Positions 5,920-23,699 are shown, counted from the stretch's first letter. The stretch is 64,000 nt of DNA from Parapedobacter sp. 2B3 (GCF_041925275.1 NZ_JBHEUZ010000014.1:1-64000), one strand, 5' to 3'. The notes: generated by a model from the letters alone, not told the origin. Numbers and translations: made by a program.

Positions 5920-7533
5920 TTACGCATCCGTTTTGTCTTTAGCTTCGGTGAGCGTTTTGATCAACTGGTAAAGTGAAACGGGATCGAAAGGTTTTCCGAC
6001 CACGGCGTCGGCCCCCGCTGCATAGGCAGCTTGCTGTTCGCGTTGCAGCACCGACGCGGAAATGGAGATGATAGGGATCTGCCGGATGTGCGCACGGCTA
6101 TCGCTCCGAATGGTACGGATAGCTTCGAAGCCGCTCATAACGGGCATGTGCGCATCCATGAGTATCAAGCTATAGGATGTGTCTTCCACTTTGTCCAATG
6201 CCTCTTTCCCGTTCTTCACGGCATCTACCGCAATCCCCCATGTCTTCAGCATGTGGGTTACCATGAAGCTATTCAGTTCATTGTCTTCGGCAAGGAGTAC
6301 ATTGACATTGTTGAGCACCGGTAGGTCTGTGTATTGCTTCTTGTCCGATTTTGGTGCCGAATCGGAATCGGCCTCATCAAACCAACACTGGAATACAAAT
6401 TCACTGCCCTTGCCCAACTCGCTGTACGCGTGGATTTGCCCTTGGTGGAGGATGACCAACCGTTTCACAATGGCCAGTCCGAGCCCCGTGCCACCGAAGC
6501 GTTTGGTGATGCCTTCTTCGCCTTGCTCGAACGATTGGAAGATTTTGTCGATGGCATTGCTGTTTATACCGATACCGGTATCTTTCACCGAAAACTGGAT
6601 ATGGATGCGCTGTTGGGTACGGTTGAGCAATTTGGTTTCCAACACCACGCTGCCCTGCTCCGTAAATTTGATGCCGTTTGAAATGAGGTTGCTCAATATC
6701 TGCGTAAGCCGCAGCGAATCGGCCAGGATGTGCTTGGGTAGCTTGCTGTCATTGATTGCTTGGAAGGTGATGCCTTTCTGTTCGGCTTTGTAGCTAAATA
6801 GGTTGGTAAGCTCTTCAATGATGTTGGGTAACGATGTCCGTGAATAGTCCAGCCTCATTTTTCCCGAATCGATCTTTGAAAGATCGAGGATGTCGTTGAT
6901 GATGAGCAACAGCTGCTGCGATGCGTTTTCCAGGTAATCCAGCCATTCCGACTGCTGGTCATTGAGGGGCGAGTTGCGCAGCATGGTGGTAATCCCCGTT
7001 ATCCCATTGATGGGGGTACGGATTTCGTGGCTCATGTTGGCGAGGAAGTTCTCTTTTGACTTGCGTGCCTGGTCTGCCTCTTTTTTGGCTTTGACCAGCT
7101 CGATGTGCGAGCGCTCGAGCTCTTCGTTTTTACGTTTCAGCTCTCGCTGGATATATACCTGCTGCATGAACGATTTTACCTTGGCTACCGTGATATCCGA
7201 GTTGAGCGGTTTATAAAGGTAGTCTACGGCACCACTGTGGAGCCCCTTGAGCAGGAATTTGTCTTCTTTAGATATGGCCGTAACCATGATCACCATGATT
7301 TGCCATGTTTTCGGATTGCTTTGAAGCAATGAAACAAACTCGAAACCATTGATTTCGGGCATCTGCACATCTACCATGGCGATAGCGATGTCGTTGTTCC
7401 AGCAATAACGGAGGGCCTCGTTGGGGGAGGTACTCCCCCATATATCCAGGTTCTCTATATCCGCCAGCAATGCCTTCAGGCTGAGTACATTCTCTTCTTT
7501 GTCGTCTACGATGACTAACTTCAGTTTCTCCAT
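5920..7533 (-). CDS. Soluble hybrid histidine kinase, REC-HisKA-HATPase-REC
   Basis: N-terminal 'LVIVDDKEENV...MVDVQMPEINGFEF' receiver; H-box 'ANMSHEIRTPING'; G-box 'DTGIGI...GGTGLGLAIVKRLV'; C-terminal receiver 'VLLAEDNELNSF...LMDAHMPVMSGFEA'. Confidence 0.85.
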   Translation of the reverse strand: MEKLKLVIVDDKEENVLSLKALLADIENLDIWGSTSPNEALRYCWNNDIAIAMVDVQMPEINGFEFVSLLQSNPKTWQIMVIMVTAISKEDKFLLKGLHSGAVDYLYKPLNSDITVAKVKSFMQQVYIQRELKRKNEELERSHIELVKAKKEADQARKSKENFLANMSHEIRTPINGITGITTMLRNSPLNDQQSEWLDYLENASQQLLLIINDILDLSKIDSGKMRLDYSRTSLPNIIEELTNLFSYKAEQKGITFQAINDSKLPKHILADSLRLTQILSNLISNGIKFTEQGSVVLETKLLNRTQQRIHIQFSVKDTGIGINSNAIDKIFQSFEQGEEGITKRFGGTGLGLAIVKRLVILHQGQIHAYSELGKGSEFVFQCWFDEADSDSAPKSDKKQYTDLPVLNNVNVLLAEDNELNSFMVTHMLKTWGIAVDAVKNGKEALDKVEDTSYSLILMDAHMPVMSGFEAIRTIRSDSRAHIRQIPIISISASVLQREQQAAYAAGADAVVGKPFDPVSLYQLIKTLTEAKDKTDA

Positions 7534-7535
7534 GG

Positions 7536-8150
7536 TTAATTCCTAAAAATATGGTTGCTCAGCCCTTGGCTGAGGATGATGAGTTCGCCGTTGGTGAGGG
7601 TCAAGTCCACCGCGCCTTTCCTGATAGCCGCGGCAGGCATGGTTTCCACTTCGGCATCGCGCGGATGCTGCACGATGCATAGTCCATCCACCTTGCGGAC
7701 GGACTCCATGCCCTCGGCACCGTCTTGGTTGGCACCCGACAGCAGGATGGCTACGGTGGATGCGCCGTAGACGTCTGCGGCGCTCTGCATGGTCACATCG
7801 ATCGATGGTCTGCAGAAATGCACCGGCTCGGAGGTGTCCAGTGATAGGCTTCGATCGGGTTCTACCAACAAGTGGTACCCGGCGGGAGCAAAATAGGCCG
7901 TAGCGGGCCGGATGGGCTCTTTGTCTTCCGCTACTTTCACCACTATACGGCATTTGGCAGCAAGGTTCGCTTCGAGATGGGTTTCGTAGTTGGCATTCCG
8001 GTGGATCACCACTAAGACGCCAACGGGGAGGTTTGCTGGCAATGCTTTAAGCATCGTTAAAAGCATTCTGAACCCACCGGCCGAACACCCCAGCACGAGC
8101 ACCCCGGTATGTCGGAGCTTATTGGCGATATATGGGTTTGACTCAAGCAA
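7536..8150 (-). CDS. cheB: CheB-type protein-glutamate methylesterase/glutaminase, catalytic domain only (no receiver)
   Basis: 204 aa; 'VLVLGCSAGG...VIHRN...GANQDG' consistent with the Ser-His-Asp methylesterase fold. Confidence 0.75.
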   Translation of the reverse strand: MLESNPYIANKLRHTGVLVLGCSAGGFRMLLTMLKALPANLPVGVLVVIHRNANYETHLEANLAAKCRIVVKVAEDKEPIRPATAYFAPAGYHLLVEPDRSLSLDTSEPVHFCRPSIDVTMQSAADVYGASTVAILLSGANQDGAEGMESVRKVDGLCIVQHPRDAEVETMPAAAIRKGAVDLTLTNGELIILSQGLSNHIFRN

Positions 8151-8965: not shown

Positions 8966-11900
8966 TTAACTTAACCACACCCGTAATAAGGAGAGTAACT
9001 TATTGACGTCAACTGGCTTAGCGATGTAATCGCTCGCGCCAACATCAAGTACATGTTGCCGATCTCCTTGCATGGCCTTGGCCGTAACCGCGATGATGGG
9101 CAACTCCACGAATCTTTTGTCCTCCCGGATTCTCGTAATCGCCTCATAACCGTCCATTTCGGGCATCATGATATCCATCAAAACCAAATCGACGCTGGGG
9201 TTGTTTTGTAACGCGTCCAGTGCCTCCCGCCCGTTATTGGCTGTTTCAATGGTCAGTTTGTATGGGGCAAATACCGAGCTCAATGCAAAAATATTCCGCA
9301 TATCGTCATCCACTAGCAAGATATGCTTGCCGTTGAGTACATCGTCCATGTGGATGGTTTCCGATTCGTCCCGAACCGATTGGACCCGGCTGGGAACGGA
9401 TTTGTCGTCATTAAGCCTGTTGATGAATAGGTGAACCTCGTCAAGAATACGGCGATTGGACTTGTCTGATTTCAATACCATGGTTTGGGTATGTTGCAAG
9501 ATACGGCTCACTATTTCGGTGGTGAGTTCCATCGCCGTATTGATGATCACGGGTATGTCTGCATATAGGGGGATCTGCTTAATCTGGTCGAGCAGGTCGA
9601 CCCCCGATATATCGGGCAAGACAATGTCCAGCACGATGCAGTCGTAACGTTCCTCCGATTCCAGGAAGTCCAGCGCTTCGGTACCGGTAAATGCCTGCCT
9701 TACGTCTACCCCGCCATCCAAGAGGAATGCTTTCAGGTTTTCACTTTGGATTTCGTGGTCTTCCACAACCAATACTTTCTTCAGTGGCGATGCGGTGATT
9801 TTGTGCAGGTGGGCGAACACCTCGTCGAGCGATTTCCTATCGATGGGTTTTTTTAAGAATCCCACCGCTTCGGCTTCCATACCGCTCTCTTTGGATTGGC
9901 CGGCCGACATGAGGTGCACAGGGATGTGTTGGGTTGCCGGATTGTTTTTTAATTTCTTGAGCACAGTCCATCCGTCGACGACAGGTAGCATGATGTCGAG
10001 GATGATGGCATCGGGCAGCAAATCGATGGCCATCTGCAGTCCGGTATCCCCTTGGCGGGCGAGCAGCGCGTCAAACCCTTGGTCCTTGGCATAGGTGGTC
10101 AGGATGTCGGCAAAATACGGGTCGTCTTCTACGATCAGCAAGCGCTTTGGCCAGGCAGGTTCCTGTACCCCTCGCTGCGGGAGCGCCCCCTGCACTACCG
10201 GCATATGGGGCTGGTTGTCCGGCTTATCCGGCAGGGGCTCGGTATAAGCCGCGGTCGCGTCTATTTCGGGCCCGTTTCGCAGCGGGAGGAACAAGGTAAA
10301 GGTGCTGCCTTTGCCCACTCCACTAGCCACGTGGATGTGACCCCCAAGGAGCGTTGCAAGTTCCCTGCAAATGGACAATCCCAGGCCGGTGCCGCCAAAT
10401 TGACGGCTCGTGGAACCATCTGCCTGCTTGAAGGCTTCGAAAATCAGTTGCTGCTTTTTTTGGGCGATGCCCACACCGGTGTCTGATACGGCGATCGCGA
10501 TGGCTTGGTCTGCCGTTATCCCTCCCGCCAATTCGCCATCCCAGCCGGGCGCTTCGCCCGCCGGTGTAAACTGCAACTCCACCCGGCCCTTTTCTTTCGT
10601 GAATTTGAATGCGTTGGAGAGCAGGTTCCTAAGTATTTGCCGTAGGCGCTGTTCATCTGTGGCGATGCGCGCAGGTAGTCCCTCGTTCACCGTGATACGG
10701 AACTCGATCGCTTTACTGTCTGCGACACTGCTGAAAAGGTCAAGCATATCTTCGGCGATGGACGACAAGGTGATGTCTTCCCACAACAGCTCAACATTGC
10801 CCGATTCGATTTTCGATAAATCGAGTATGTTGTTGATCAGGTCGAGCAGGTCTGAACCCGCGTTATGGATAACGGATACATATTTTACTTGTTCGGGCAG
10901 TAAGTTACCTGTTTTGTTGTCTTCAAGCAATTTCGCGAGGATAAGTATGCTGTTGAGCGGAGTGCGCAATTCGTGGCTCATATTGGCCAGAAATTCCGAT
11001 TTATATCTGCCCGATTGTTCCAGTTCGCCCACTTTCAATGCAATGGATTGGCGGGCTAGCTCGATGGAAATATTGCGTTCTTCCAGTAACCTTGCTTTTT
11101 CTTCGAGTGCTAGGTTAGCGTGTTTAAGTTCTTCCTGCTGCACCCGCAATTCTTCCTGCTGAGCCTCCAATTCTTCTGCCTGTTGCTGCGTTTCTTCATA
11201 GAGGAGGGTAAGCGTTGTATGTGCCTGCGCTACTTTACTGGCCACGGCCAAAGAAATGCCTGCCCGTTGCAGGAATTGGAGGGTTTCTTTGTCGACCTCA
11301 CGGAAAAAGCCGATCTCCATTACGCCGAGCACTTCCTCTTCGTAAACCAGGGGTTGAATGACAATGTTTTTCGGCTCGGTTTTTCCCAAAGAGGATGTGA
11401 TGGTGAGGTAATTTTCGGGTATATGCGATAATACAAGTTGTTTTTTGGCAGAAATACTCTCGCCCGCCAATCCCTGGCCATCCATGATCTTAGGAGGAAT
11501 GTTTTTTGTCTCAACGGCATACGACCCCGCATGGACATATACTTCTTCCCGGGAAAAGCTTTTGAGGTAAATCATTCCGACCTTTGCTTGTACATGTTGG
11601 CAAACCGTCCGGATCGCATTGGTGGCTATTTCTTTTTCGCTACGCCCACCACGCGTATGGTTATCCAGGGCAGCCAAGCCGCTGAGTATCCAATTGTCTA
11701 CCTCTTTTGTTTTCGATAGTTTATTGAGGTCACGGTTGGATTTGCGGATGCGGTAGGCGATTTCCTTGTAGTGTTCAAAGGTTTTTGTGATATAAACCAA
11801 CAGCCACACAATGAGCGCAAAGACCAATACCGAGGTGACAATGAAGGTGGTCCGGATACTGGCAAGTGTGGTATCGGCCACCTCTACCTGGTTGAAGAGC

Positions 11901-11995
11901 AAGGTGAGGTAGCGTAAACTAACAAGCAGGATCGCGATCAGGAGTGAGAAGCCTAGATAGATGTGTACCCTGAAGGTTAGTCGTTTCATAATCAA
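8966..11995 (-). CDS. Membrane-anchored GAF-domain hybrid sensor histidine kinase with three C-terminal receiver domains
   Basis: 1009 aa; two N-terminal TM helices; GAF-like region about aa 110-250; Q/E-rich coiled coil aa 265-330; H-box 'ANMSHELRTPLNS'; HATPase 'DTGVGI...GGTGLGLSICREL'; three D-x-x-P receivers ('LLIVEDDP', 'VLVVEDHE', 'ILLVDDDM'). Confidence 0.85.
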   Translation of the reverse strand: MIMKRLTFRVHIYLGFSLLIAILLVSLRYLTLLFNQVEVADTTLASIRTTFIVTSVLVFALIVWLLVYITKTFEHYKEIAYRIRKSNRDLNKLSKTKEVDNWILSGLAALDNHTRGGRSEKEIATNAIRTVCQHVQAKVGMIYLKSFSREEVYVHAGSYAVETKNIPPKIMDGQGLAGESISAKKQLVLSHIPENYLTITSSLGKTEPKNIVIQPLVYEEEVLGVMEIGFFREVDKETLQFLQRAGISLAVASKVAQAHTTLTLLYEETQQQAEELEAQQEELRVQQEELKHANLALEEKARLLEERNISIELARQSIALKVGELEQSGRYKSEFLANMSHELRTPLNSILILAKLLEDNKTGNLLPEQVKYVSVIHNAGSDLLDLINNILDLSKIESGNVELLWEDITLSSIAEDMLDLFSSVADSKAIEFRITVNEGLPARIATDEQRLRQILRNLLSNAFKFTKEKGRVELQFTPAGEAPGWDGELAGGITADQAIAIAVSDTGVGIAQKKQQLIFEAFKQADGSTSRQFGGTGLGLSICRELATLLGGHIHVASGVGKGSTFTLFLPLRNGPEIDATAAYTEPLPDKPDNQPHMPVVQGALPQRGVQEPAWPKRLLIVEDDPYFADILTTYAKDQGFDALLARQGDTGLQMAIDLLPDAIILDIMLPVVDGWTVLKKLKNNPATQHIPVHLMSAGQSKESGMEAEAVGFLKKPIDRKSLDEVFAHLHKITASPLKKVLVVEDHEIQSENLKAFLLDGGVDVRQAFTGTEALDFLESEERYDCIVLDIVLPDISGVDLLDQIKQIPLYADIPVIINTAMELTTEIVSRILQHTQTMVLKSDKSNRRILDEVHLFINRLNDDKSVPSRVQSVRDESETIHMDDVLNGKHILLVDDDMRNIFALSSVFAPYKLTIETANNGREALDALQNNPSVDLVLMDIMMPEMDGYEAITRIREDKRFVELPIIAVTAKAMQGDRQHVLDVGASDYIAKPVDVNKLLSLLRVWLS

Positions 11996-14252: not shown

Positions 14253-15251
14253 ATGGATCCGAGTATTACCCCCATTTTGATTATCGTAGGCGCTATTGTT
14301 GCCTTTTTCTTCCTGCTGTATCTCCTTCCCGTAAACCTGTGGTTTACAGCCCAGTTGTCGGGAGTCCGTATCAATCTGTTGAACCTGCTGCTGATGCGGC
14401 TCCGGAAAGTTTCCCCCGCACTGGTCACCAATGCCATGATTACTTCCACCAAAGCGGGATTGGATATCACGTCGAACGAGATCGAAACCCATTATTTAGC
14501 CGGCGGCAATGTCAATAATGTGATCAAAGCATTGATTTCTGCCGATAAGGCAAACATCCCGTTGGACTTCAAGCTGGCCACGGCGATTGATCTGGCCGGT
14601 CGCGATGTGTTTGACGCCGTGCAGCTATCGGTCAACCCACGGGTTATCAACACGCCGCCCGTGGCGGCCGTGGCGAAAGATGGTATCCAGCTTATTGCCA
14701 AAGCGAGGGTGACGGTAAGGGCCAATATCAACCAACTGGTAGGTGGTGCCGGCGAAGAGACCATCCTCGCCCGGGTGGGCGAGGGGATTGTTACGACCAT
14801 CGGATCGGCGGCAAATCACAAAGAAGTACTGGAAAATCCCGACCGTATCTCAAAAACCGTCTTGGCAAAAGGTCTGGATAGCGGTACTGCATTCGAGATC
14901 CTGTCTATCGACATCGCCGATATCGATATCGGCGAGAACATCGGGGCGAAATTGCAGACCGACCAAGCGGAGGCGGACCTCAAAGTGGCCAACGCACGTG
15001 CGGAAGAACGGCGGGCGATGGCTGTCGCCTCCGAGCAGGAAATGCGCGCCAAAGCGCAGGAGGCCCGGGCGAAGGTCATCGAAGCGGAGGCACAGGTGCC
15101 ATTGGCCATGGCAGAAGCATTCCGTAGCGGCAACCTGGGCGTAATGGATTACTACCGGATGCAGAATATCCAGGCCGACACCGATATGCGTGGGTCTATC
15201 GCCAAACCCGGTGGCGAGGCTGGCAAAGGCGGTGGCAGCAATAAAGGTTAA
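14253..15251 (+). CDS. floA: Flotillin-like protein FloA (SPFH family, YqfA/UPF0365)
   Basis: 332 aa; N-terminal TM '[18 protein letters not shown]'; '[18 protein letters not shown]...' typical FloA; A/E/R-rich C-terminus. Confidence 0.8.
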
Positions 15252-15374: not shown

Positions 15375-16703
15375 ATGAAGATTGAATTTATTGCCATTCC
15401 GTTGTTTGTTTCCACCTTCTTTCTGATGTCGTCGTGCTCCGCACAGGATGCCCATCCCCATGGCGGCCCTACGCCGGATAGTCACGCCCAGTTCGTGCCC
15501 ATTGGTGGCAATACCTGGCAGCTGCCGCAGGAATCGCGACAGACGAGCTTCCTGGGAGAGCGTGGGGTAAATGGATGGGATGATACCTCCTACTTTTTCC
15601 AAAGCTACATCCGGTTCGCCGATAAGGGTAAACTTAGGCTTTGGCTGAGCTTGGAAAGCGATTCGGAAGATGCGAGGGTGTCGGTAGCCATCAACGGCGA
15701 GACCAAGGAAGTGCATATACCGGCCGATTTCTCCGGCGATGTTTTTGCCGGTACCTGGGCGGTTACCGACACCGGTTACGCGATGGTAACGCTGCGCGGC
15801 ATTGATCGGGGCGGGGTGCATTTCCCGCGAATCGGTGGGTACCGTATCGACGGCAGTGCAGTGTCTCCAGCTACCGCATATGTGAAAAACAATACCGGTG
15901 ATTTTTTCTATTGGGGCCGTAGGGGGCCATCGGTGCATCTCAATTACCGCGTCCCTGCCGATAAAGCCATCAAATGGTACTACAATGAAATCACCGTTCC
16001 CGAGGGGGATGACGTGGTTGGTTCCTATTACATGGCAAATGGTTTCAGGGGTGGCTATTTTGGTATCCAGGTGAATAGTGAAATTGAGCGGCGCATATTG
16101 TTTTCCGTTTGGAGCCCCTATGAAACGGATAATCCGGATGAGATACCGGAAGCGCAGCAGATTAAGCTATTGCGAAAGGGCGCAGATGTGCATACCGGTG
16201 AATTTGGTAACGAAGGATCGGGCGGACAGAGTTACCTCCGTTACCCGTGGAAGGCAGGGCATACGTACCGGTTTTTGCTGAGTGGCGAGCCCGTAGGGAA
16301 TAACCATACCGTATATACTGCTTGGTTCTTTGCTCCCGAAAAGGGAGAGTGGATGCTGATTGCCAGCTTCAGCCGTCCCGACACGGATACATGGTTGGAA
16401 GGTTTCCATTCGTTTTTGGAAAATTTCAGTCCGCAGCAAGGGCGTTACGAACGCCGCGTCTTTTTTGGGAACCAATGGGTGGCCGATAGGGATGGCAATT
16501 GGTACGAAATTACAGCGGCTAAGTTTACCGCAGACAATACGGCCCGGGTCGGATACCGGTTGGATTACGGTGGGGGCGAAGCAGGTAATCGTTTTTTCCT
16601 GCGAAACTGTGGTTTTTTTGCCGATTACACGGTGATCGATACTTTTTTTGAGCGCACGGCGGAGGGTAAGCAGCCAACGGTTGATCTTTCTACATTGCCC
16701 TAA
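15375..16703 (+). CDS. Lipoprotein of the DUF5077/DUF3472 type (Bacteroidota-specific, function unknown)
   Basis: 442 aa; signal + 'LMSSCSAQ' lipobox; family assignment from memory of conserved blocks (YWGRRGP..., W..I.A.F), not verified. Confidence 0.4.
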   Translation: MKIEFIAIPLFVSTFFLMSSCSAQDAHPHGGPTPDSHAQFVPIGGNTWQLPQESRQTSFLGERGVNGWDDTSYFFQSYIRFADKGKLRLWLSLESDSEDARVSVAINGETKEVHIPADFSGDVFAGTWAVTDTGYAMVTLRGIDRGGVHFPRIGGYRIDGSAVSPATAYVKNNTGDFFYWGRRGPSVHLNYRVPADKAIKWYYNEITVPEGDDVVGSYYMANGFRGGYFGIQVNSEIERRILFSVWSPYETDNPDEIPEAQQIKLLRKGADVHTGEFGNEGSGGQSYLRYPWKAGHTYRFLLSGEPVGNNHTVYTAWFFAPEKGEWMLIASFSRPDTDTWLEGFHSFLENFSPQQGRYERRVFFGNQWVADRDGNWYEITAAKFTADNTARVGYRLDYGGGEAGNRFFLRNCGFFADYTVIDTFFERTAEGKQPTVDLSTLP

Positions 16704-18239: not shown

Positions 18240-20798
18240 TTAATTGATGCTGAACCTTACCCCCGCATAAAATACCCTGCCCGTCAGTGGCCCCCACAGC
18301 AGCGAGGTGTCAAAAAACTCGCTGAATGGCTGGTCTGCCGCCAACACGGGATTTCGCTGGAAGAAGTTTGTCAGGTTTTCACCGCCGATATAGAGGTCGA
18401 AGGGTCGCACCTTGCCCATTGTTTTGCTTATTTGCGCATTCATGGTCATGTACGCCTTTGAATAGTCTGGCAGTTGGTAACCGGCCGGATTCGCCGAGGT
18501 AGATGGCAATCGCTTCTGCCCGGTGATGTTTAACGTGTAGTCGAAATGCCATCCGCCGCTATGGGTGTTGTATGCGAGGTTGAGAAACCCCCGATGGCGT
18601 GCCACAAGTGGCTTTTGCAGCAGCTCGTCGCCGTACGTGGTTTTCACGTCAAAGAAGCGGTAGGCCATCCGTGCCTCAAAGTGGGGTAGCGGCATGAACC
18701 GAAACTCCGTTTGCAAGCTATTTGAATACGACCGGCCATCGAGGTTGTAAAAAGCCAGTTCCCTCGGGTTTTCGTAATCCACCACTACCTGGTTGGTAAA
18801 ATCATTCCGGAAAAACTCCGTACTGAAGGAAGCTTCCCGATGGAACATGCGGAAGGACTGGTCGAAACTGATACCCGTGTTCCAGGCCACTTCCGGTTTT
18901 AGGCCATACGCGTTTTCCATTGTATTGGCAGCGATGCGGACGGTCCGGGCACTGGCCAATGCTGCCGTGTTCTCGGCAAAAACATTGGCCGTCCGTTGTC
19001 CGCGCCCCCCACTTATCCGGAAAGTCGTTCCCGCCACCGGCTGGTAGCGCAGGTGTAAGCGTGGCGTGGCAAACCACCCGTATAGGTTGTTGTAGTCGCC
19101 ACGGATACCAGCCACCGCATCGAATTTGTCTGATGGACTATACGTGTATTCGAAGAAGGCGCCCGGCACCACCTCGTTACGCGCAAACCGATCGGCCATA
19201 TAACGCTCGTCATAGCGGTCGTATTGCATGCTCAGGCCGGTACGGTACTTATGTACCACCGTACCAATGATGTCTTGATAAATGAGGTTGGCATACGCAT
19301 TCCGTTGTTCCGCATCATAGGTGCGTTGGCCGAAATAGGACGATTGGTTGTAGGATGTGCCCGAGAGCTGCAATCCGATACTGCGCTGCGTATGTTGGGG
19401 GAAGACATAGCCTATTTTAGCGAACGCTTCGTAACGCTCGATATCGAAGGCAAGCCCGTACCGGTTCTGTGTCAGCTTGTCCGTGGCGGGATTGAAATCG
19501 ATCTCCCCGCCCGTGCGGTCGTCGCTGAGGAACTTGACCCCGAATTGTACGATAAAACCTTTGCCATCTTCGTATTTCCAGCGGCCAACGCCCGAGAAGA
19601 GGTTGCCCACCGGCGAGTCGCGGAAACCGTTATTGCTGAAATTCATGCTTTTATTATACATGAAATTGTCATGCAGCAACAGGCTGCCCGACCAACGTTC
19701 GTTGAAATTGTGGGAGAGGTTGAGGTTTACATCCGTGCGCCCCATGTTGTTGCCATAGGCATTGAAAAACAGTTTCTCGGACGTGCCAGGTTTCTTCAGT
19801 TCCACGTTGATCTGCCCGGCGATGTTTTCGAACCCGTTCACTACGGATCCAATGCCCTTGCCTATCTGGATGGACTCGATCCAGGTGCCTGAGATACTAT
19901 TGAGCCCCAGCGGGGTGGCCAATCCACGCGGCCCGGGCAGGTTTTCTACGGTCAGTTGGGTGTAGTTGCCGCTGAGTCCCAGCATCTGGATCTGCTTGCT
20001 GCCCGTAACGGCATCGCTGTTCACCACGTCTACGGAGGCGTTGGTTTCGAAGCTTTCGCTCAGATCGCAGCAGGCCGCTTTGAAGAGCTCTTGTCCCGTC
20101 AGCACTTCAAGCCGTGTGGGGCTGAGGGCGGCGATGTAGTTTGAGCGCCGCCGTGCGGATACGGTCACTTCTGCCAATACGTTGTCTTTGGCCGTTACCA
20201 CCACCACTTCATGGGGGGCGGTTACAGCTATCGTATCGGGCTGGAGGCCGGCATAGGAGATGACAAGCTGTTTGTAGGTTGCCTCATGTGCAATCCGGAA
20301 TACCCCCGATTCGTCGGAACGTGCATTGACCGAAGTGTTTTCCAGCCAGTGCACGTTCGCATTTGCGATGGGGCTGAGCTGGCCGCGGTTGTTTTCCTGC
20401 ATGACCACGCCGGTAACCGTGTGGTCGTCGTGCCCATCCTGCCCACTGGTCTTATGCACGTTTTTTTCATCGTGGTACTGGCAGCAGGCGGGCAGTTTTT
20501 CGTAGGCTTCCTGTACGGCGGTGCGGCCGTCTGCGTCATGCCCCGCGGCGAGGATGCGTTGCTTGGCAGCTTCCACACTATATGAGGCGCTGTGGGTGAG
20601 GGTGAGTTGTTGGGTGCGCACGTCCCAATGGGCGCTTGTCAGCCCGCTGCCATCGGCGGCTTTCTCAATCCGCGCTTTGCACATGCCGCATACGCCGGCT
20701 ACGGTAAATGTAGCTGTGCTGTCTTGGGCTGCGGCCGACCAACTGGTTATGGCCAGCAGTATATATAACGTAATCGTTGCTTTAATGAAATGGGTCAT
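18240..20798 (-). CDS. TonB-dependent outer-membrane receptor with N-terminal heavy-metal-associated (HMA, CxxC) domain, His-rich linker and CarbopepD-regulatory-like domain
   Basis: Signal 'MTHFIKATITLYILLAITSWSAAAQ'; 'TFTVAGVCGMCKARIEKAA' HMA fold with CGMC; 'HDEKNVHKTSGQDGHDDH'; plug/barrel; C-terminal 'YAGVRFSIN' with terminal aromatic-x-aromatic-type OMP ending. Confidence 0.8.
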   Translation of the reverse strand: MTHFIKATITLYILLAITSWSAAAQDSTATFTVAGVCGMCKARIEKAADGSGLTSAHWDVRTQQLTLTHSASYSVEAAKQRILAAGHDADGRTAVQEAYEKLPACCQYHDEKNVHKTSGQDGHDDHTVTGVVMQENNRGQLSPIANANVHWLENTSVNARSDESGVFRIAHEATYKQLVISYAGLQPDTIAVTAPHEVVVVTAKDNVLAEVTVSARRRSNYIAALSPTRLEVLTGQELFKAACCDLSESFETNASVDVVNSDAVTGSKQIQMLGLSGNYTQLTVENLPGPRGLATPLGLNSISGTWIESIQIGKGIGSVVNGFENIAGQINVELKKPGTSEKLFFNAYGNNMGRTDVNLNLSHNFNERWSGSLLLHDNFMYNKSMNFSNNGFRDSPVGNLFSGVGRWKYEDGKGFIVQFGVKFLSDDRTGGEIDFNPATDKLTQNRYGLAFDIERYEAFAKIGYVFPQHTQRSIGLQLSGTSYNQSSYFGQRTYDAEQRNAYANLIYQDIIGTVVHKYRTGLSMQYDRYDERYMADRFARNEVVPGAFFEYTYSPSDKFDAVAGIRGDYNNLYGWFATPRLHLRYQPVAGTTFRISGGRGQRTANVFAENTAALASARTVRIAANTMENAYGLKPEVAWNTGISFDQSFRMFHREASFSTEFFRNDFTNQVVVDYENPRELAFYNLDGRSYSNSLQTEFRFMPLPHFEARMAYRFFDVKTTYGDELLQKPLVARHRGFLNLAYNTHSGGWHFDYTLNITGQKRLPSTSANPAGYQLPDYSKAYMTMNAQISKTMGKVRPFDLYIGGENLTNFFQRNPVLAADQPFSEFFDTSLLWGPLTGRVFYAGVRFSIN

Positions 20799-20909
20799 TG
20801 TCGTAAATGGTGTTAATCCTAAACATCGTGAAAAATAACGTGCAAAAGGCACAGGGTGCCGTGAACGGAGCTTTCCAGCCCGGCTCATTGGCTGCGATGG
20901 TTGGATGTA

Positions 20910-21362
20910 TCAGATACGATAGGTACAGTGCCTGATGAAGAGGGGCGTGGTTCCGGTATGCGGCAGGGCATTTGCCACTTCTGCCACGGTATAGCTGTCT
21001 AGCGGGAAGTCCGCCACGCGGATTAGCGTAAATACAAGGAGCTCCAGCGACTGTATTTTCAGTAGGTTTTTGTCGCTGCTGGGGAGGTGGTCGCCTGTCG
21101 TTTTCTGGGCATCTACCTGAATGTCTTGGCAATGGTCGTGCGACTGCACATCGGTGGCGCAGTGTTGGCTGCTATCGCAATCCGTATGCTCGTTGCTTTC
21201 GTTGTGGTTGGGGCAAAGCGTACACCTGTCATGGCCGGGGGCACGCTCGTTCTCCACGGATAAGTGCTGCAGTTTCCCGCAGCAGTAATGGAGGTGTACG
21301 GTGGCTCCCGTTGCCGAGAAAGCGTACACGAGCATCAGCCATATGGTGAGCACTTTTACCAT
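20910..21362 (-). CDS. Small His/Cys-rich putative metal-binding protein (HYCCG motif), one N-terminal TM/signal helix
   Basis: 'TVHLHYCCGKL', 'HDRCTLCPNHNESNEHTDCDSSQHCATDVQSHDHCQD'; lies immediately upstream of, and co-oriented with, the HMA-TonB receptor. Confidence 0.5.
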   Translation of the reverse strand: MVKVLTIWLMLVYAFSATGATVHLHYCCGKLQHLSVENERAPGHDRCTLCPNHNESNEHTDCDSSQHCATDVQSHDHCQDIQVDAQKTTGDHLPSSDKNLLKIQSLELLVFTLIRVADFPLDSYTVAEVANALPHTGTTPLFIRHCTYRI

Positions 21363-21383
21363 GGTAGGGGCAAAGATACGTAA

Positions 21384-21420
21384 AAACCCCGCAGTTTTCA
21401 ATATAGTTGCGGGGTTTGTA
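21384..21420 (-). terminator. Intrinsic terminator after the flotillin gene (ccccgca...tgcgggg + TTTTTA on minus strand)
   Basis: aaaaaccccgcagttttcaatatagttgcggggtttgt on + strand; the U-tract follows on the minus strand. Confidence 0.5.
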
Positions 21421-21422
21421 TG

Positions 21423-23006
21423 CTATTTCACTTCTTCGGCATCCTGTATGCCGTCGTCGGGCCCATTACCCTTGCGCTTTTTTCCGGGAGCCCCACCACT
21501 TGCAGACTGCAGGTTTTTGGCTTCGCCGAGGTAATTGGGCAGTTCCATTCCGGCCATGTCGAAGATGTCTTTGAGGGGAGGCACGGATTTATATAGCCCC
21601 GAGACGAAGTTGGCGGTTGATGTTTTGCCGTCTTCGCCGGAGCCGTTTCCACCGTCCCACACGGTTACCTTATCGATCTTGATGTTTTTGATGGCTTCCG
21701 TCTGCAGTTTTACAAGTTCAGGGAGCTTATCGGTAATCAGTAGCAATACGGCGTCTTTCGGGTTGTTGCCGGCAGATTTGACGATTTCATTGAGGCCTTC
21801 CGCCTGTTTGGTGAGCATCTCGTATACCCCCCTCGCTTCGGCCTCCAATTTGGCGAATATGGCATCCGCCTCGCCACGCGCTTTCTCGCGCAACTGTTCG
21901 GCTTCCGCCTGGGCTTCGATGATGGCTTTTTGCTTTTGGATTTCCGCCGCAACCACGATGGTCGCATTTTGTGCGGCCCGGTCGCGCTCGGCGCGGGCGT
22001 CTTCCGCCCGTTGCTCCGCTTTGTATGCTTCTTCCAATGCCAATGCCTGTTGTACCTTTTCGGCAGCGACGGCCTTCTTCAACGCTTCCGCCTCCCGTTC
22101 ACGGCGCTTCGCTTCAGAATCGGCAATCTGTATTTTAGAGAGGTTTTCGCCCTGTACGGCAATGGCGTTTGCATCGGCCACTTTCACGCGTGTATCACGT
22201 TCGGCCTCGGCTTTCCCGATATTTTCGTCGCGCGCCGCACCGGCGATGCTTACTTCTTTGTCTTTTTCGGCAATAGCTACTTCGGTATCACGGTCCCGCT
22301 GCATTTCTGCGACTTTGATATCCCGCTCCTTTTCTGCCTCTGTCTTTCCTATGTCACCCAATCGTTCCTGCTCAGCCACGCGGATTTTTGCCTCGTTGAT
22401 GGCTTTCGCTGCGGCTTCTTTACCCAATGCGTCGATGTAACCGCTCTCGTCTTTAATATCGGTGACGTTTACGTTGATCATCTTAAGACCAATCTTGTTG
22501 AGCTCCGCTTCGACATTCGTTGCAATATTGTGCAGGAATTTATCCCGATTGTTGTTGATCTCTTCGATATCCATCATGGCCACCACGAGGCGCATTTGAC
22601 CAAGGATGATATCTTTGGCCAACTCATGGATCTGCGGGCGTTGCATGCCCAGCAACCGTTCCGCAGCGTTCATCATTACTGTCGGTTCGGTAGAAATCCC
22701 CACGGTATACCTGGAAGGTACGTCTACCCGGATATTCTGCTTGCTGAGTGCGCTGGTGAGGTTTACCTCGATGGAAATGGGAGTGAGGTCCAGAAAGGAA
22801 TAGTCTTGGATAACCGGCCAGATAAAGGCGGCACCCCCATGGATGCATTTGGCAGCCCGGGTAAGGTCGGAGGCGTTTTTACCCACCTTTCCATAGACCA
22901 CCAAAATGCGATCTGACGGACAGCGTTTGTATCGCTTAAACAGCGAAATGATGAATACGAAGATGATGATGATGCCAACGGCAATGGCGATTAGGTAAAA
23001 TTCCAT
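21423..23006 (-). CDS. Flotillin (SPFH/band-7 family, FloT/YuaG-like) with long A/E/K/R coiled coil
   Basis: 527 aa; N-terminal TM; SPFH core; 'AEAERDTRVKVADANAI...EAEALKKAVAAEKVQQALALEEAYKAEQRAE' flotillin-type EA repeats. Confidence 0.8.
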   Translation of the reverse strand: MEFYLIAIAVGIIIIFVFIISLFKRYKRCPSDRILVVYGKVGKNASDLTRAAKCIHGGAAFIWPVIQDYSFLDLTPISIEVNLTSALSKQNIRVDVPSRYTVGISTEPTVMMNAAERLLGMQRPQIHELAKDIILGQMRLVVAMMDIEEINNNRDKFLHNIATNVEAELNKIGLKMINVNVTDIKDESGYIDALGKEAAAKAINEAKIRVAEQERLGDIGKTEAEKERDIKVAEMQRDRDTEVAIAEKDKEVSIAGAARDENIGKAEAERDTRVKVADANAIAVQGENLSKIQIADSEAKRREREAEALKKAVAAEKVQQALALEEAYKAEQRAEDARAERDRAAQNATIVVAAEIQKQKAIIEAQAEAEQLREKARGEADAIFAKLEAEARGVYEMLTKQAEGLNEIVKSAGNNPKDAVLLLITDKLPELVKLQTEAIKNIKIDKVTVWDGGNGSGEDGKTSTANFVSGLYKSVPPLKDIFDMAGMELPNYLGEAKNLQSASGGAPGKKRKGNGPDDGIQDAEEVK

Positions 23007-23096: not shown

Positions 23097-23699
23097 TTAA
23101 AAAGTCGTTTTCCCCGTTACCAATAAGATGCTTTCGTTTACGATTCCTACTACGGTTACCGGTCTCCCCGTCGGGATGTCGTCCTCGTCGTCGGTCAGCG
23201 CCCTCAGTTCCCGGAGGGAACCCTGCACGCGGATATGCACCTTCCCATAGCCACTGCGTACGGCCGGTATCCGCAGGTATGTTTCGGCCTGCTTATGCAG
23301 TGCATTCTGGATGCGCAAGGTGCCGCTAGAACGGAGCTTTGCCATCCGCGAAAAGAGGTAGAACATGATCAATACGATGGCCACACCCGATACGGTTGAC
23401 CAAATGACTACCTGCCCGATGGGAAGCCCGCTTTTCAGGCAACCCAGCCCCACCCAGCCGAAAACGGTGAAGAACGTAATGAAGTTCTTAATGGTGAAAA
23501 ATTGGTAGTCGATGCCCCCGTCGCCATCTACATATTCATCCGAATCGCCGAATGCCCCATCATCGTCGCCCCCGCCAATGAAAGCGAAGATCGTTTGCAT
23601 GACAAATAGGAACGAAAACAGCAAGGCGACCGCCCAAAAGAATTTCTCAGTGCCTCCGAGTGCCTGCCACCAAGTTGTTATGGATAGTGTTGTGTTCAT
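23097..23699 (-). CDS. NfeD-family membrane protein (flotillin partner, YuaF-like)
   Basis: 200 aa; 3-4 TM helices + acidic linker (DDDGAFGDSDEYVDGDGG) + C-terminal beta-rich OB-like domain; located immediately upstream of the flotillin gene as in yuaF-yuaG. Confidence 0.6.
   Translation of the reverse strand: MNTTLSITTWWQALGGTEKFFWAVALLFSFLFVMQTIFAFIGGGDDDGAFGDSDEYVDGDGGIDYQFFTIKNFITFFTVFGWVGLGCLKSGLPIGQVVIWSTVSGVAIVLIMFYLFSRMAKLRSSGTLRIQNALHKQAETYLRIPAVRSGYGKVHIRVQGSLRELRALTDDEDDIPTGRPVTVVGIVNESILLVTGKTTF

Follow-up and report, generated by a model that had tools for sequence, protein, structure and literature searches.

To our knowledge, the passage of copper across the outer membrane and its trafficking through the periplasm are known for only a few Proteobacteria, through OprC/NosA, CusF, CopC and PcoC, and are essentially unknown in Bacteroidota, a dominant phylum of soil, rhizosphere and gut. 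We analysed a stretch of 64,000 nucleotides (nt) from Parapedobacter sp. 2B3 (GCF_041925275.1, NZ_JBHEUZ010000014.1:1-64000; hereafter the window), in which a small gene and a receptor gene lie head to tail, in that order, on the minus strand. The small gene (20910-21362, from an ATG at 21362) encodes a protein of 150 amino acids (aa). The receptor gene (18240-20798, from an ATG at 20798) encodes a TonB-dependent transporter of 852 aa that carries a heavy-metal-associated (HMA) module at its N-terminus. Judging from the company that their relatives keep, the pair is probably a copper route through the cell envelope, because relatives of both parts sit in copper-handling loci. The start of the receptor at 20798 is used by all orthologues and by NCBI, whose protein P0055 is 100% identical over the 852 aa; a longer open reading frame (ORF) of 882 aa from 20888 was rejected, as orthologues do not use that start.

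Profile comparison places the small protein as a divergent member of a family that is catalogued as DUF8199 (PF26622) or HYC_CC_PP (NF047658) and is uncharacterised. When genomes were scanned with an alignment of the small protein, DUF8199 was recovered in 15 of the 15 Parapedobacter genomes found and in Huijunlia, and every such gene was followed by a large ORF with an HMA domain and a vicinal cysteine pair (the HMA-CC unit). The receptors of Sphingobacterium faecium and S. paludis likewise had a DUF8199 gene directly upstream, and the pair was kept in metagenomic contigs despite different flanking genes. As a converse test, metagenomes were scanned with an alignment of the receptor, and the best 80 of at least 574 loci (52-89% identity) were assessed with hidden Markov models (HMMs) built here. 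One or more HMA-CC units were present in 79 of these 80 receptors, the remaining one being truncated. Sixty-four loci extended at least 1 kb upstream of the receptor, and in all but one of them (63 of 64) DUF8199 was encoded there on the same strand. The sole exception (L108) shares its gene order with L107, in which DUF8199 lies 2.6 kb upstream, and the L108 contig is probably too short. A preliminary description of the locus, made from the DNA alone, had paired the receptor with this neighbour, and the pairing held in these loci as well as in every Parapedobacter and Sphingobacterium genome examined.

The gap between the DUF8199 and receptor genes was at most 300 nt in 46 loci, and in some taxa the ORFs overlapped or lay 4-11 nt apart. 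Wider gaps, which belonged to more distant loci, held HMBD proteins (PF19335), stand-alone HMA-CC proteins, TlpA-like thioredoxins and a protein of about 275 aa without a Pfam match. Synteny in Sphingobacteriaceae followed the order TrpA … DUF8199-receptor with convergent Maf and KdsC genes, and resistance genes were absent there. Judged by gene order across these taxa, the pairing is far beyond chance.

The N-terminus of the receptor carries the features that point to a metal. Behind a signal peptide (residues 1-24, 20727-20798; MTHFIK...SWSAAA, with predicted cleavage between AAA and QD), which was read from the sequence and has a start common to orthologues, lies the HMA-CC module (residues 29-108, 20475-20714). 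It contains C37-G-M-C40, the invariant residues G86-H87-D88 and Y99, and the vicinal pair C105-C106. The His-rich linker HDEKNVHKTSGQDGHDDH follows (residues 109-126, 20421-20474, minus strand like all features of the pair), and then a CarbopepD_reg-like N-terminal extension domain (residues 128-213, 20160-20417), which was assigned from Pfam, profile and AlphaFold results. The Pfam HMA model (PF00403) matched residues 30-87 with 20.1 bits (E = 8e-4), below its gathering score of 24.8; an orthologue (L001) scored above it with 27.2 bits, and PF00403 was precomputed in most of the best 120 receptor homologues.

Receptor orthologues were aligned as 24 and then 45 sequences (55-89% identity), and the profile of the 45 sequences was compared with the PDB. 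The best matches were the HMA domains of Bacillus subtilis CopA (1p6t, 4e-13; 2rml, 1.8e-12). The same profile also matched the HMA domain of ATP7B and CopZ (6ff2, 9e-7), the Zn-ATPase HMA domains 2ofg and 2ldi (about 3e-6) and MerP (9e-4). For residues 27-100, AlphaFold predicted a beta-alpha-beta-beta-alpha fold with a predicted local distance difference test score (pLDDT) of 75-89, the strands spanning residues 27-33, 53-59 and 64-69 and the helices residues 38-47 and 75-84. By profile and predicted fold, the HMA assignment is secure at the family level. The HMA domain with CGMC named in the preliminary description was thus recovered by fold and profile recognition (CopA, 4e-13; residues 27-100), despite the sub-threshold Pfam score of the window protein. 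The architecture given there was also correct, with CGMC (C37/C40) and the His-rich stretch (109-126) preceding the CarbopepD-regulatory (128-213) and plug (227-328) domains.

In the orthologue alignment the HMA-CC module spans about 80 residues, with the consensus FxVxGxCxMCKxRIEKA … GHD … Y..L..CC.Y, and it occurs in one to three tandem copies. Most orthologues have a His-rich, HDHDHEH-like linker after it, which is reduced or lacking in P0108, P0109, P0124, P0170 and L021. Over 82 aa, the module of the window receptor shared 44% of its residues with an HMA protein of Niastella that is secreted and stands alone (E = 2e-25). For the extension domain, Pfam CarbopepD_reg_2 matched residues 128-213 with 29.5 bits, just below the gathering score of 32.2, and CarboxypepD_reg matched residues 127-194 with 26.1 bits (gathering score 32.3). 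The receptor-family profile matched the N-terminal extension of RagA, and AlphaFold predicted a beta-sandwich at this place (pLDDT 76-86). The whole receptor has exactly six cysteines, all invariant and arranged in three pairs: 37/40 (CGMC), 105/106 (LPACCQY) and 243/244 in the plug. The established topology of these transporters puts all parts N-terminal to the plug in the periplasm, and the HMA-CC module should accordingly face that compartment together with the His-rich linker.

The remainder of the receptor resembles a classical TonB-dependent transporter, with plug and barrel together amounting to about 640 aa, the size typical of that class. The plug domain (residues 227-328, 19815-20120) matched Pfam Plug (PF07715) over the same residues with 29.8 bits, above the cutoff of 23.9. 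The invariant vicinal pair C243-C244 (20067-20072) lies in the plug motif KAACCDLSESFETN, and the plug CC motif was found in 79 of the 80 metagenomic homologues. Ahead of the plug is the TonB-box-like motif VLAEVTVSA (residues 207-215, 20154-20180), part of a conserved consensus DNVLxEVxVS, which would be the TonB box by resemblance only. The beta-barrel (residues ~340-852, 18243-19781; AlphaFold pLDDT ~75-85), of the 22-strand kind, was matched by Foldseek to solved TonB-dependent transporters (E = 2.5e-17). Among them were PqqU, BtuB, FepA/PfeA, ZnuD and OprC, all at 10-13% identity, and none stood out. Pfam PF00593 (TonB_dep_Rec_b-barrel) was not significant for the window receptor but scored 88.7 and 93.2 bits in its orthologues L001 and L004, and a direct sequence search of the receptor against the PDB gave no match.

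The small protein contains 8 Cys and 12 His. The preliminary description of a 150-aa protein with one hydrophobic helix, an HLHYCCG motif and 8 Cys was accurate except for its count of 10 His. PF26622 was precomputed for 52 of 54 homologues, including one that is 99% identical, and the close homologues (37-99% identity) were almost all from Parapedobacter. With the family HMM built here, the small ORF of the window scored 221 bits. Against the NCBIfam model HYC_CC_PP it scored 16.3 bits, below the cutoff of 28. Relatives in Sphingobacterium, Huijunlia, Niastella and a Sphingobacteriales metagenome-assembled genome (MAG) passed this cutoff (L022, 64.1; L026, 51.8; L021, 38.5; L035, 31.6 bits), L011 scored 22.2 bits, and L036 and L002 gave no match. 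Some relatives already carry the NCBI name 'HYC_CC_PP family protein'. A profile search of 1.84 billion representatives returned 912 DUF8199-family clusters at E <= 1e-3.

Residue conservation was counted across 111 family representatives. Within the N-terminal hydrophobic helix (residues 1-20, 21303-21362; a signal-anchor or signal peptide, modelled by AlphaFold as a helix over residues 2-17), Y13 was present in 111 and G19 in 106. The HLHYCCG motif (residues 23-29, 21276-21296) includes H25 (103/111), C27 (111/111) and G29 (102/111); across the family, H25 and C27 are candidates for metal ligands. A conserved CxxC knuckle, CTLC (C47-x-x-C50, 21213-21224), had its first cysteine in 102 and its second in 78 of the representatives. 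C78 was invariant (111/111), and position 77 was Cys in 88 representatives and His in the window protein. Towards the C-terminus, P134 (92/111), P140 (84/111), C146 (97/111) and R149 (92/111) were conserved, and the terminal motif PLFIRHCTYRI (residues 140-150, 20913-20945) ends in the near-invariant I150 (109/111). The motifs that give the family its name read HYC = H25-Y26-C27, H77-C78 at the CC position and L133-P134 at the PP position. The CC of HYCCG is a different position from the family CC, so that the window protein reads HYC-C where the family reads HYC. With HC for CC, LP for PP and HYC-C for HYC, the window protein therefore represents a divergent subfamily.

Hydropathy analysis gave a single transmembrane (TM)-like segment, the N-terminal one, which is preceded by Lys/Arg (Kyte-Doolittle peak 1.74; mean of 1.8 K/R among the first 6 residues). 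The invariance of Tyr13 inside this helix suggests an anchor that is kept rather than cleaved off. DUF8199 is then probably held at the inner membrane by its N-terminal helix, and the rest of the protein, largely disordered by prediction and containing about five Cys and one His that are conserved, would be periplasmic. Three other proposals for the small protein were rejected. A MerF-like topology with two TM segments did not agree with the second hydrophobic segment, whose median Kyte-Doolittle peak was 1.1 and exceeded 1.6 in 8% of members. Homology between DUF8199 and HMBD reached an hhalign probability of 72% over 12 columns only, with no Pfam match in the 111 members, and was judged a motif resemblance; the CTLC knuckle is weakly similar in motif to the second knuckle of HMBD. 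An amino-terminal Cu(II)- and Ni(II)-binding (ATCUN) motif would arise if signal-peptidase cleavage after S-A-T-G-A yielded a T-V-H N-terminus; as a family feature it was set aside, since only 44 of the 111 representatives have His23 and the helix, with its invariant Tyr13, is probably retained. Separately, two DUF8199 paralogues were seen a few kb apart in L022/L024 (3638-4030 and 5995-6393) and in L082 (93-479 and 6884-7357).

Relatives of the two proteins were found in loci whose content points to copper. In Chitinophagaceae and allied MAGs, HYC_CC_PP genes head heavy-metal loci, and there they are often followed by a gene for a secreted protein of about 125 aa with a signal peptide, an HMA-GHD-CC arrangement and a His-rich tail. 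This protein is a free-standing form of the HMA-CC module of the receptor. P1B-1 ATPases with the Cu(I) signature CPC…YN…MALSS (MxxSS) were encoded in L022, L028, L032 and L034, and a His-rich CPH (P1B-3) ATPase adjoined a receptor in L080. The resistance-nodulation-division (RND) pump of such loci has a TM4 motif (AIGVIVDNGIIMSEN) with a single Asp, which is CusA-like rather than CzcA-like. The copper loci also contained HMBD and DUF3347-like proteins, TlpA-like thioredoxins and AraC regulators with an HMA-like N-terminus. From these neighbourhoods, the chemistry around DUF8199 and HMA-CC is taken to be that of copper, and Cu(I) in particular. DUF8199 and HMA-CC are thus associated in two architectures, with a free HMA protein beside exporters or with the HMA fused to a TonB-dependent transporter.

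Several features of these loci were recorded as observations in their own right. The AraC-family regulators are about 186-207 aa long, and their N-terminus (MKLYIKNMVCNRCI…) resembles a degenerate HMA with CxxC (L022 4122-4745; L028 2702-3262; L029 4595-5155; L034 1003-1566; L098 6318-6884); they are candidate copper sensors of Bacteroidota. The CusA-like RND pump is encoded as two abutting or overlapping ORFs (about 430 and 640 aa) with the break always just after the TM4 motif (L020 7136-10338; L022 6882-10111; L028 7193-10410; L030 2381-5602; L034 6884-10110), which looks like a natural split transporter rather than sequencing errors. In the receptor locus L098, a 242-aa fusion of HMA with a MauE membrane domain (6971-7699) lies between the regulator and the P-type ATPase. 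A protein of about 275 aa with an ELYVFSEPASNxPA motif and a secreted protein of about 470-490 aa with a His-rich start recur in extended receptor/copper operons (L098 1822-2655 and 7757-9169; L080 3520-4995; L107 3141-3971; L108 658-1485), and a Pfam scan of the two L098 proteins gave no match.

We tentatively favour, at somewhat below an even chance, copper import with a periplasmic hand-off from the transporter to its tethered HMA domain and on to DUF8199. On this reading the pair is a self-contained two-gene operon that would carry a soft metal across the cell envelope, with copper the likeliest candidate. Copper, as the ion or a small complex, would enter through the barrel in a TonB-energised step and be captured at the periplasmic exit by the plug CC, the CC behind the HMA domain, and the HMA CxxC with the His-rich arm. 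Ligand exchange would then transfer it to the H-x-H-Y-C-C, CxxC and C sites of DUF8199 at the inner-membrane surface, and DUF8199 would pass the metal on or buffer it. Import is favoured because the TonB-box-like motif is conserved, the fold is that of a transporter and the synteny in Sphingobacteriaceae is of a housekeeping kind. The data show the domain architecture, three conserved pairs of cysteines, an obligate pairing of the genes and both modules recurring in copper loci; we infer which metal is carried and in which direction, that DUF8199 faces the periplasm, and that the proteins transfer metal between them. As for the metal or metallophore uptake unit of the preliminary description, the link to a metal stood and could be narrowed towards copper by the neighbouring P1B-1 and P1B-3 ATPases, CusA-like RND pumps, HMBD proteins and TlpA-like proteins. 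Uptake is suggested only by the transporter class and the TonB-box-like motif, and no evidence was obtained for a metallophore.

A fuller version of copper import, which we regard as decidedly unlikely, is a complete cysteine relay without a described counterpart, in which Cu(I) would move from C243-C244 to C105-C106, on to C37/C40 and finally to the HxHYCC site of DUF8199. Such a relay would do for copper what MerP to MerT does for mercury, the counterpart of MerP being here joined to an outer-membrane transporter. DUF8199 and HMA-CC would then serve as a portable periplasmic Cu(I) relay for importers, as at this locus, or for CusA-type exporters.

Several observations weigh against copper import with hand-off. 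Outside Sphingobacteriaceae, most DUF8199 genes head efflux or resistance operons, and some receptor loci carry CopB-type exporters. The periplasm is oxidising, and Cys-based sites there depend on a reductant; thioredoxin genes occurred in only 13 of the 80 loci, and the window has none. Zn, Cd and Hg are likewise bound by HMA CxxC sites and by His-rich stretches. The AlphaFold model of the small protein, from a 46-sequence alignment, had low confidence (pLDDT 46) with helices only at residues 2-17 and 100-116, and the plug of the receptor (210-335) was modelled with pLDDT below 30, so that the three-dimensional position of C243-C244 was not placed. No metal-responsive operator was recognised upstream of the pair in the aligned loci, where only the promoter and the terminator were conserved, and the neighbourhood of the pair in the window held no further metal genes.

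The efflux context of the wider DUF8199 family keeps alive a role in copper tolerance or buffering, which we consider rather unlikely. Here the HMA domain and DUF8199 would sequester periplasmic Cu(I), or would sense it and shut the transporter by feedback gating at the TonB box; the substrate of the barrel would be something else, or copper would be brought in for controlled disposal, as MerP/MerT do with Hg(II). Such a role agrees with the position of the wider family at the head of operons for CusA-like RND pumps, CopA and HMBD proteins, with the AraC-type regulator and CopB-type exporter downstream in some receptor loci, and with the about equal scores of the stand-alone module on MerP and CopZ models. 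Against it stand the housekeeping position in Sphingobacteriaceae (TrpA ... Maf, KdsC), where resistance genes are lacking, and the retention of the TonB-box-like motif. The barrel, moreover, is 55-89% identical across genera, as would be expected if it carried a specific substrate.

Improbable, in our assessment, is that the receptor acts as an analogue of ZnuD and takes up zinc or some other divalent metal (Ni, Co, Cd), with the HMA domain and His-rich linker as a Zn(II) acceptor like the N-termini of ZiaA and ZntA. The match of the family profile to the Zn-ATPase HMA domains 2ofg and 2ldi (about 3e-6) and the presence of ZnuD among the Foldseek barrel matches fit such a role, and ZiaA likewise has a His-rich stretch after its HMA domain. 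The best HMA matches, however, were Cu(I) domains, by seven orders of magnitude. The associated ATPases bear Cu(I)/Cu signatures (CPC/YN/MxxSS and CPH), and the TM4 of the RND pumps, with its single Asp, resembles that of CusA. ZntA has DCxxC, whereas no Asp precedes the first Cys here (GVCGMC / GNCGMC), and a Zur-type context was not seen in the loci.

More improbable still is that DUF8199 is an exported metal-scavenging 'metallophore protein' that docks on the transporter in the manner of the hemophores of HmuY-HmuR and HasA-HasR. The placement of a small gene upstream of a receptor gene does resemble the hmuY-hmuR order, the protein is Cys/His-rich and largely disordered, and its conserved extreme C-terminus could be a recognition element. 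It has no lipobox, however, and no recognisable C-terminal domain of the type IX secretion system (T9SS). Tyr13 and Gly19 inside the helix, the first invariant and the second nearly so, argue that the helix is retained, not cleaved, and family members also occur in transporter-free operons beside periplasmic HMA proteins and RND pumps. That the two genes are functionally unlinked neighbours, a generic receptor beside an unrelated small secreted protein, is effectively refuted by the co-occurrence counts, the pair being kept in 63 of 64 loci while flanking genes change, with a spacer held at 83-124 nt or with ORFs that overlap or lie 4-11 nt apart, and with DUF8199 co-occurring also with the free-standing HMA module.

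The layout of the locus agrees with a separate transcription unit. The upstream flotillin (Band_7) gene ends at 21423 and is followed by its intrinsic terminator (21382-21417, minus strand), a hairpin at 21384-21417 with a 10-bp stem, a 14-nt loop and a T-run (the U-run of the transcript) to 21382. Its folding energy was -16.6 kcal/mol (z = -4.1; 0 of 200 shuffles folded equally well), and the same hairpin was found with compensatory changes in other Parapedobacter loci (L005-L009 and L019). The terminator that the preliminary description placed between the pair and flotillin was thus confirmed, with its extent set at 21382-21417. A putative Bacteroidota-type promoter (21371-21401) has a TTG (-33) at 21399-21401 and a TAnnTTTG (-7; TATCTTTG) at 21371-21378, which we take to be the Bacteroidota -33/-7 promoter consensus. 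The -7 box ends 8 nt from the ATG of the small gene. When the window was aligned with the equivalent position in L001-L019, L035 and L036, TAnnTTTG lay 6-12 nt before the DUF8199 start codon in nearly all 21 aligned loci, whatever the upstream gene; L021 was irregular. This spacing implies that the DUF8199 mRNA would have a very short leader or be leaderless. As a conserved promoter-type box directly follows the terminator, the pair is therefore likely to be its own transcription unit.

The two genes are separated by a spacer of 111 nt (20799-20909), in which a second promoter was not evident; among 21 Sphingobacteriaceae-type loci its length was 83-124 nt. The spacers of the window and of L005-L019 usually contained a GTGC…GCAC-type hairpin, sometimes with a T-run, which was not significant and had no consensus structure. 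The idea that these 111 nt hold a regulatory RNA or an attenuator was rejected after Rfam gave no match, RNAalifold gave no consensus and the hairpin had z = -1.8. Downstream, the receptor gene faces two convergent genes, those of Maf and of a KdsC-like HAD hydrolase.

Other genes of the window were noted in passing. Two distinct flotillin-type genes lie within 8 kb, FloA (PF12127, 538 bits; 14253-15251) and the 527-aa Band_7 protein (21423-23006). The Band_7 gene is preceded by a gene for a 200-aa membrane protein (23097-23699) without a Pfam match, possibly NfeD-like, and these two appear inserted relative to the TrpA-DUF8199 order of Sphingobacterium and metagenomic loci. A PepSY-like gene is likewise an apparent insertion, except in L002-L004, which have it. 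A DUF5077 and DUF3472 protein (15375-16703, plus strand; 367 bits) belongs to the conserved synteny block, since Sphingobacterium faecium has a homologous gene in the corresponding place (L035 10550-11851). A 1009-aa hybrid sensor kinase with GAF, HisKA/HATPase and three receiver domains is encoded at 8966-11995 on the minus strand.

The unit is not unique to the window. It is a widespread, catalogued and uncharacterised module, of which the window holds an ordinary, somewhat divergent copy. It is strongly conserved and occurs across soil Bacteroidota; the scans gave at least 574 receptor loci, and the partner family comprises 912 representative clusters. The literature searched contained no paper on HYC_CC_PP, DUF8199, PF26622 or an HMA-bearing TonB-dependent receptor; the subject of a paper on copper in Bizionia was an OprC homologue. 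New with respect to that literature is the combination of a TonB-dependent transporter, a metallochaperone domain tethered to it in the periplasm, and a small Cys/His-rich protein as obligate partner. If copper proved to be the metal, the pair would give DUF8199/HYC_CC_PP its first function, provide a substrate for a large family of orphan transporters, and offer a tractable model for the hand-off of metal at the periplasmic exit of a transporter. Its main value is that both an orphan transporter family and an orphan DUF of a major phylum gain a clear hypothesis that can be tested.

When compared with described systems, the unit did not have the defining features of the OprC, SusCD, FecA-type or Mer families and is not a member of any of them. 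OprC/NosA of Pseudomonas (PDB 6z8s) is likewise an outer-membrane TonB-dependent transporter, of 22 strands, that is implicated in copper, and OprC ranked 41 among the Foldseek matches. However, the receptor has no detectable sequence homology to OprC, which has neither an HMA domain nor a DUF8199 partner. An OprC-type site in the receptor was rejected, as it contains no CxxxM or HxM motif and its only cysteines are the three N-terminal and plug pairs. The SusC/RagA transporters share a CarbopepD_reg-like N-terminal extension with the receptor. SusC-like transporters generally have larger barrels (the RagA chain has 997 aa), whereas that of the receptor is of classical size, and no SusD/RagB gene lies downstream, where Maf converges instead. 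FecA/FpvA transducers, like the receptor, have one more globular domain in the periplasm ahead of the TonB box; theirs is an STN signalling domain, whereas the receptor has an HMA domain and gave no Pfam STN match. An extracytoplasmic function (ECF) sigma/anti-sigma pair was not conserved beside the receptor across loci, and its neighbours in the window are flotillin and Maf.

Comparison with CusF/CusCBA showed that the DUF8199 and free-HMA loci of Chitinophagaceae also encode a small periplasmic metal-binding protein together with a CusA-like pump. CusF differs in being a Met/His/Trp beta-barrel that is not Cys-based, and the window has no pump, the partner there being an importer-type barrel. 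In MerP-MerT/MerF, the partner of a periplasmic HMA protein with a signal peptide and CxxC is a small protein of the membrane whose first hydrophobic helix contains, or is closely followed by, two vicinal Cys, and both features recur here. No Mer model reached its cutoff (the stand-alone HMA module scored 34.6 bits over its full length on the MerP model, cutoff 92.55), and the examined loci, which are of copper type, contained no mer genes (merA, merR). The HMA domain here is part of an outer-membrane transporter, and where MerT has three TM segments and MerF two, DUF8199 has a single TM-like one. The step from MerP to MerT in the uptake of mercury is nevertheless the closest working analogy. 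By comparison with these systems, the unit would work like a metal-specific TonB-dependent transporter such as OprC or ZnuD to which a periplasmic chaperone such as CusF or MerP has been added.

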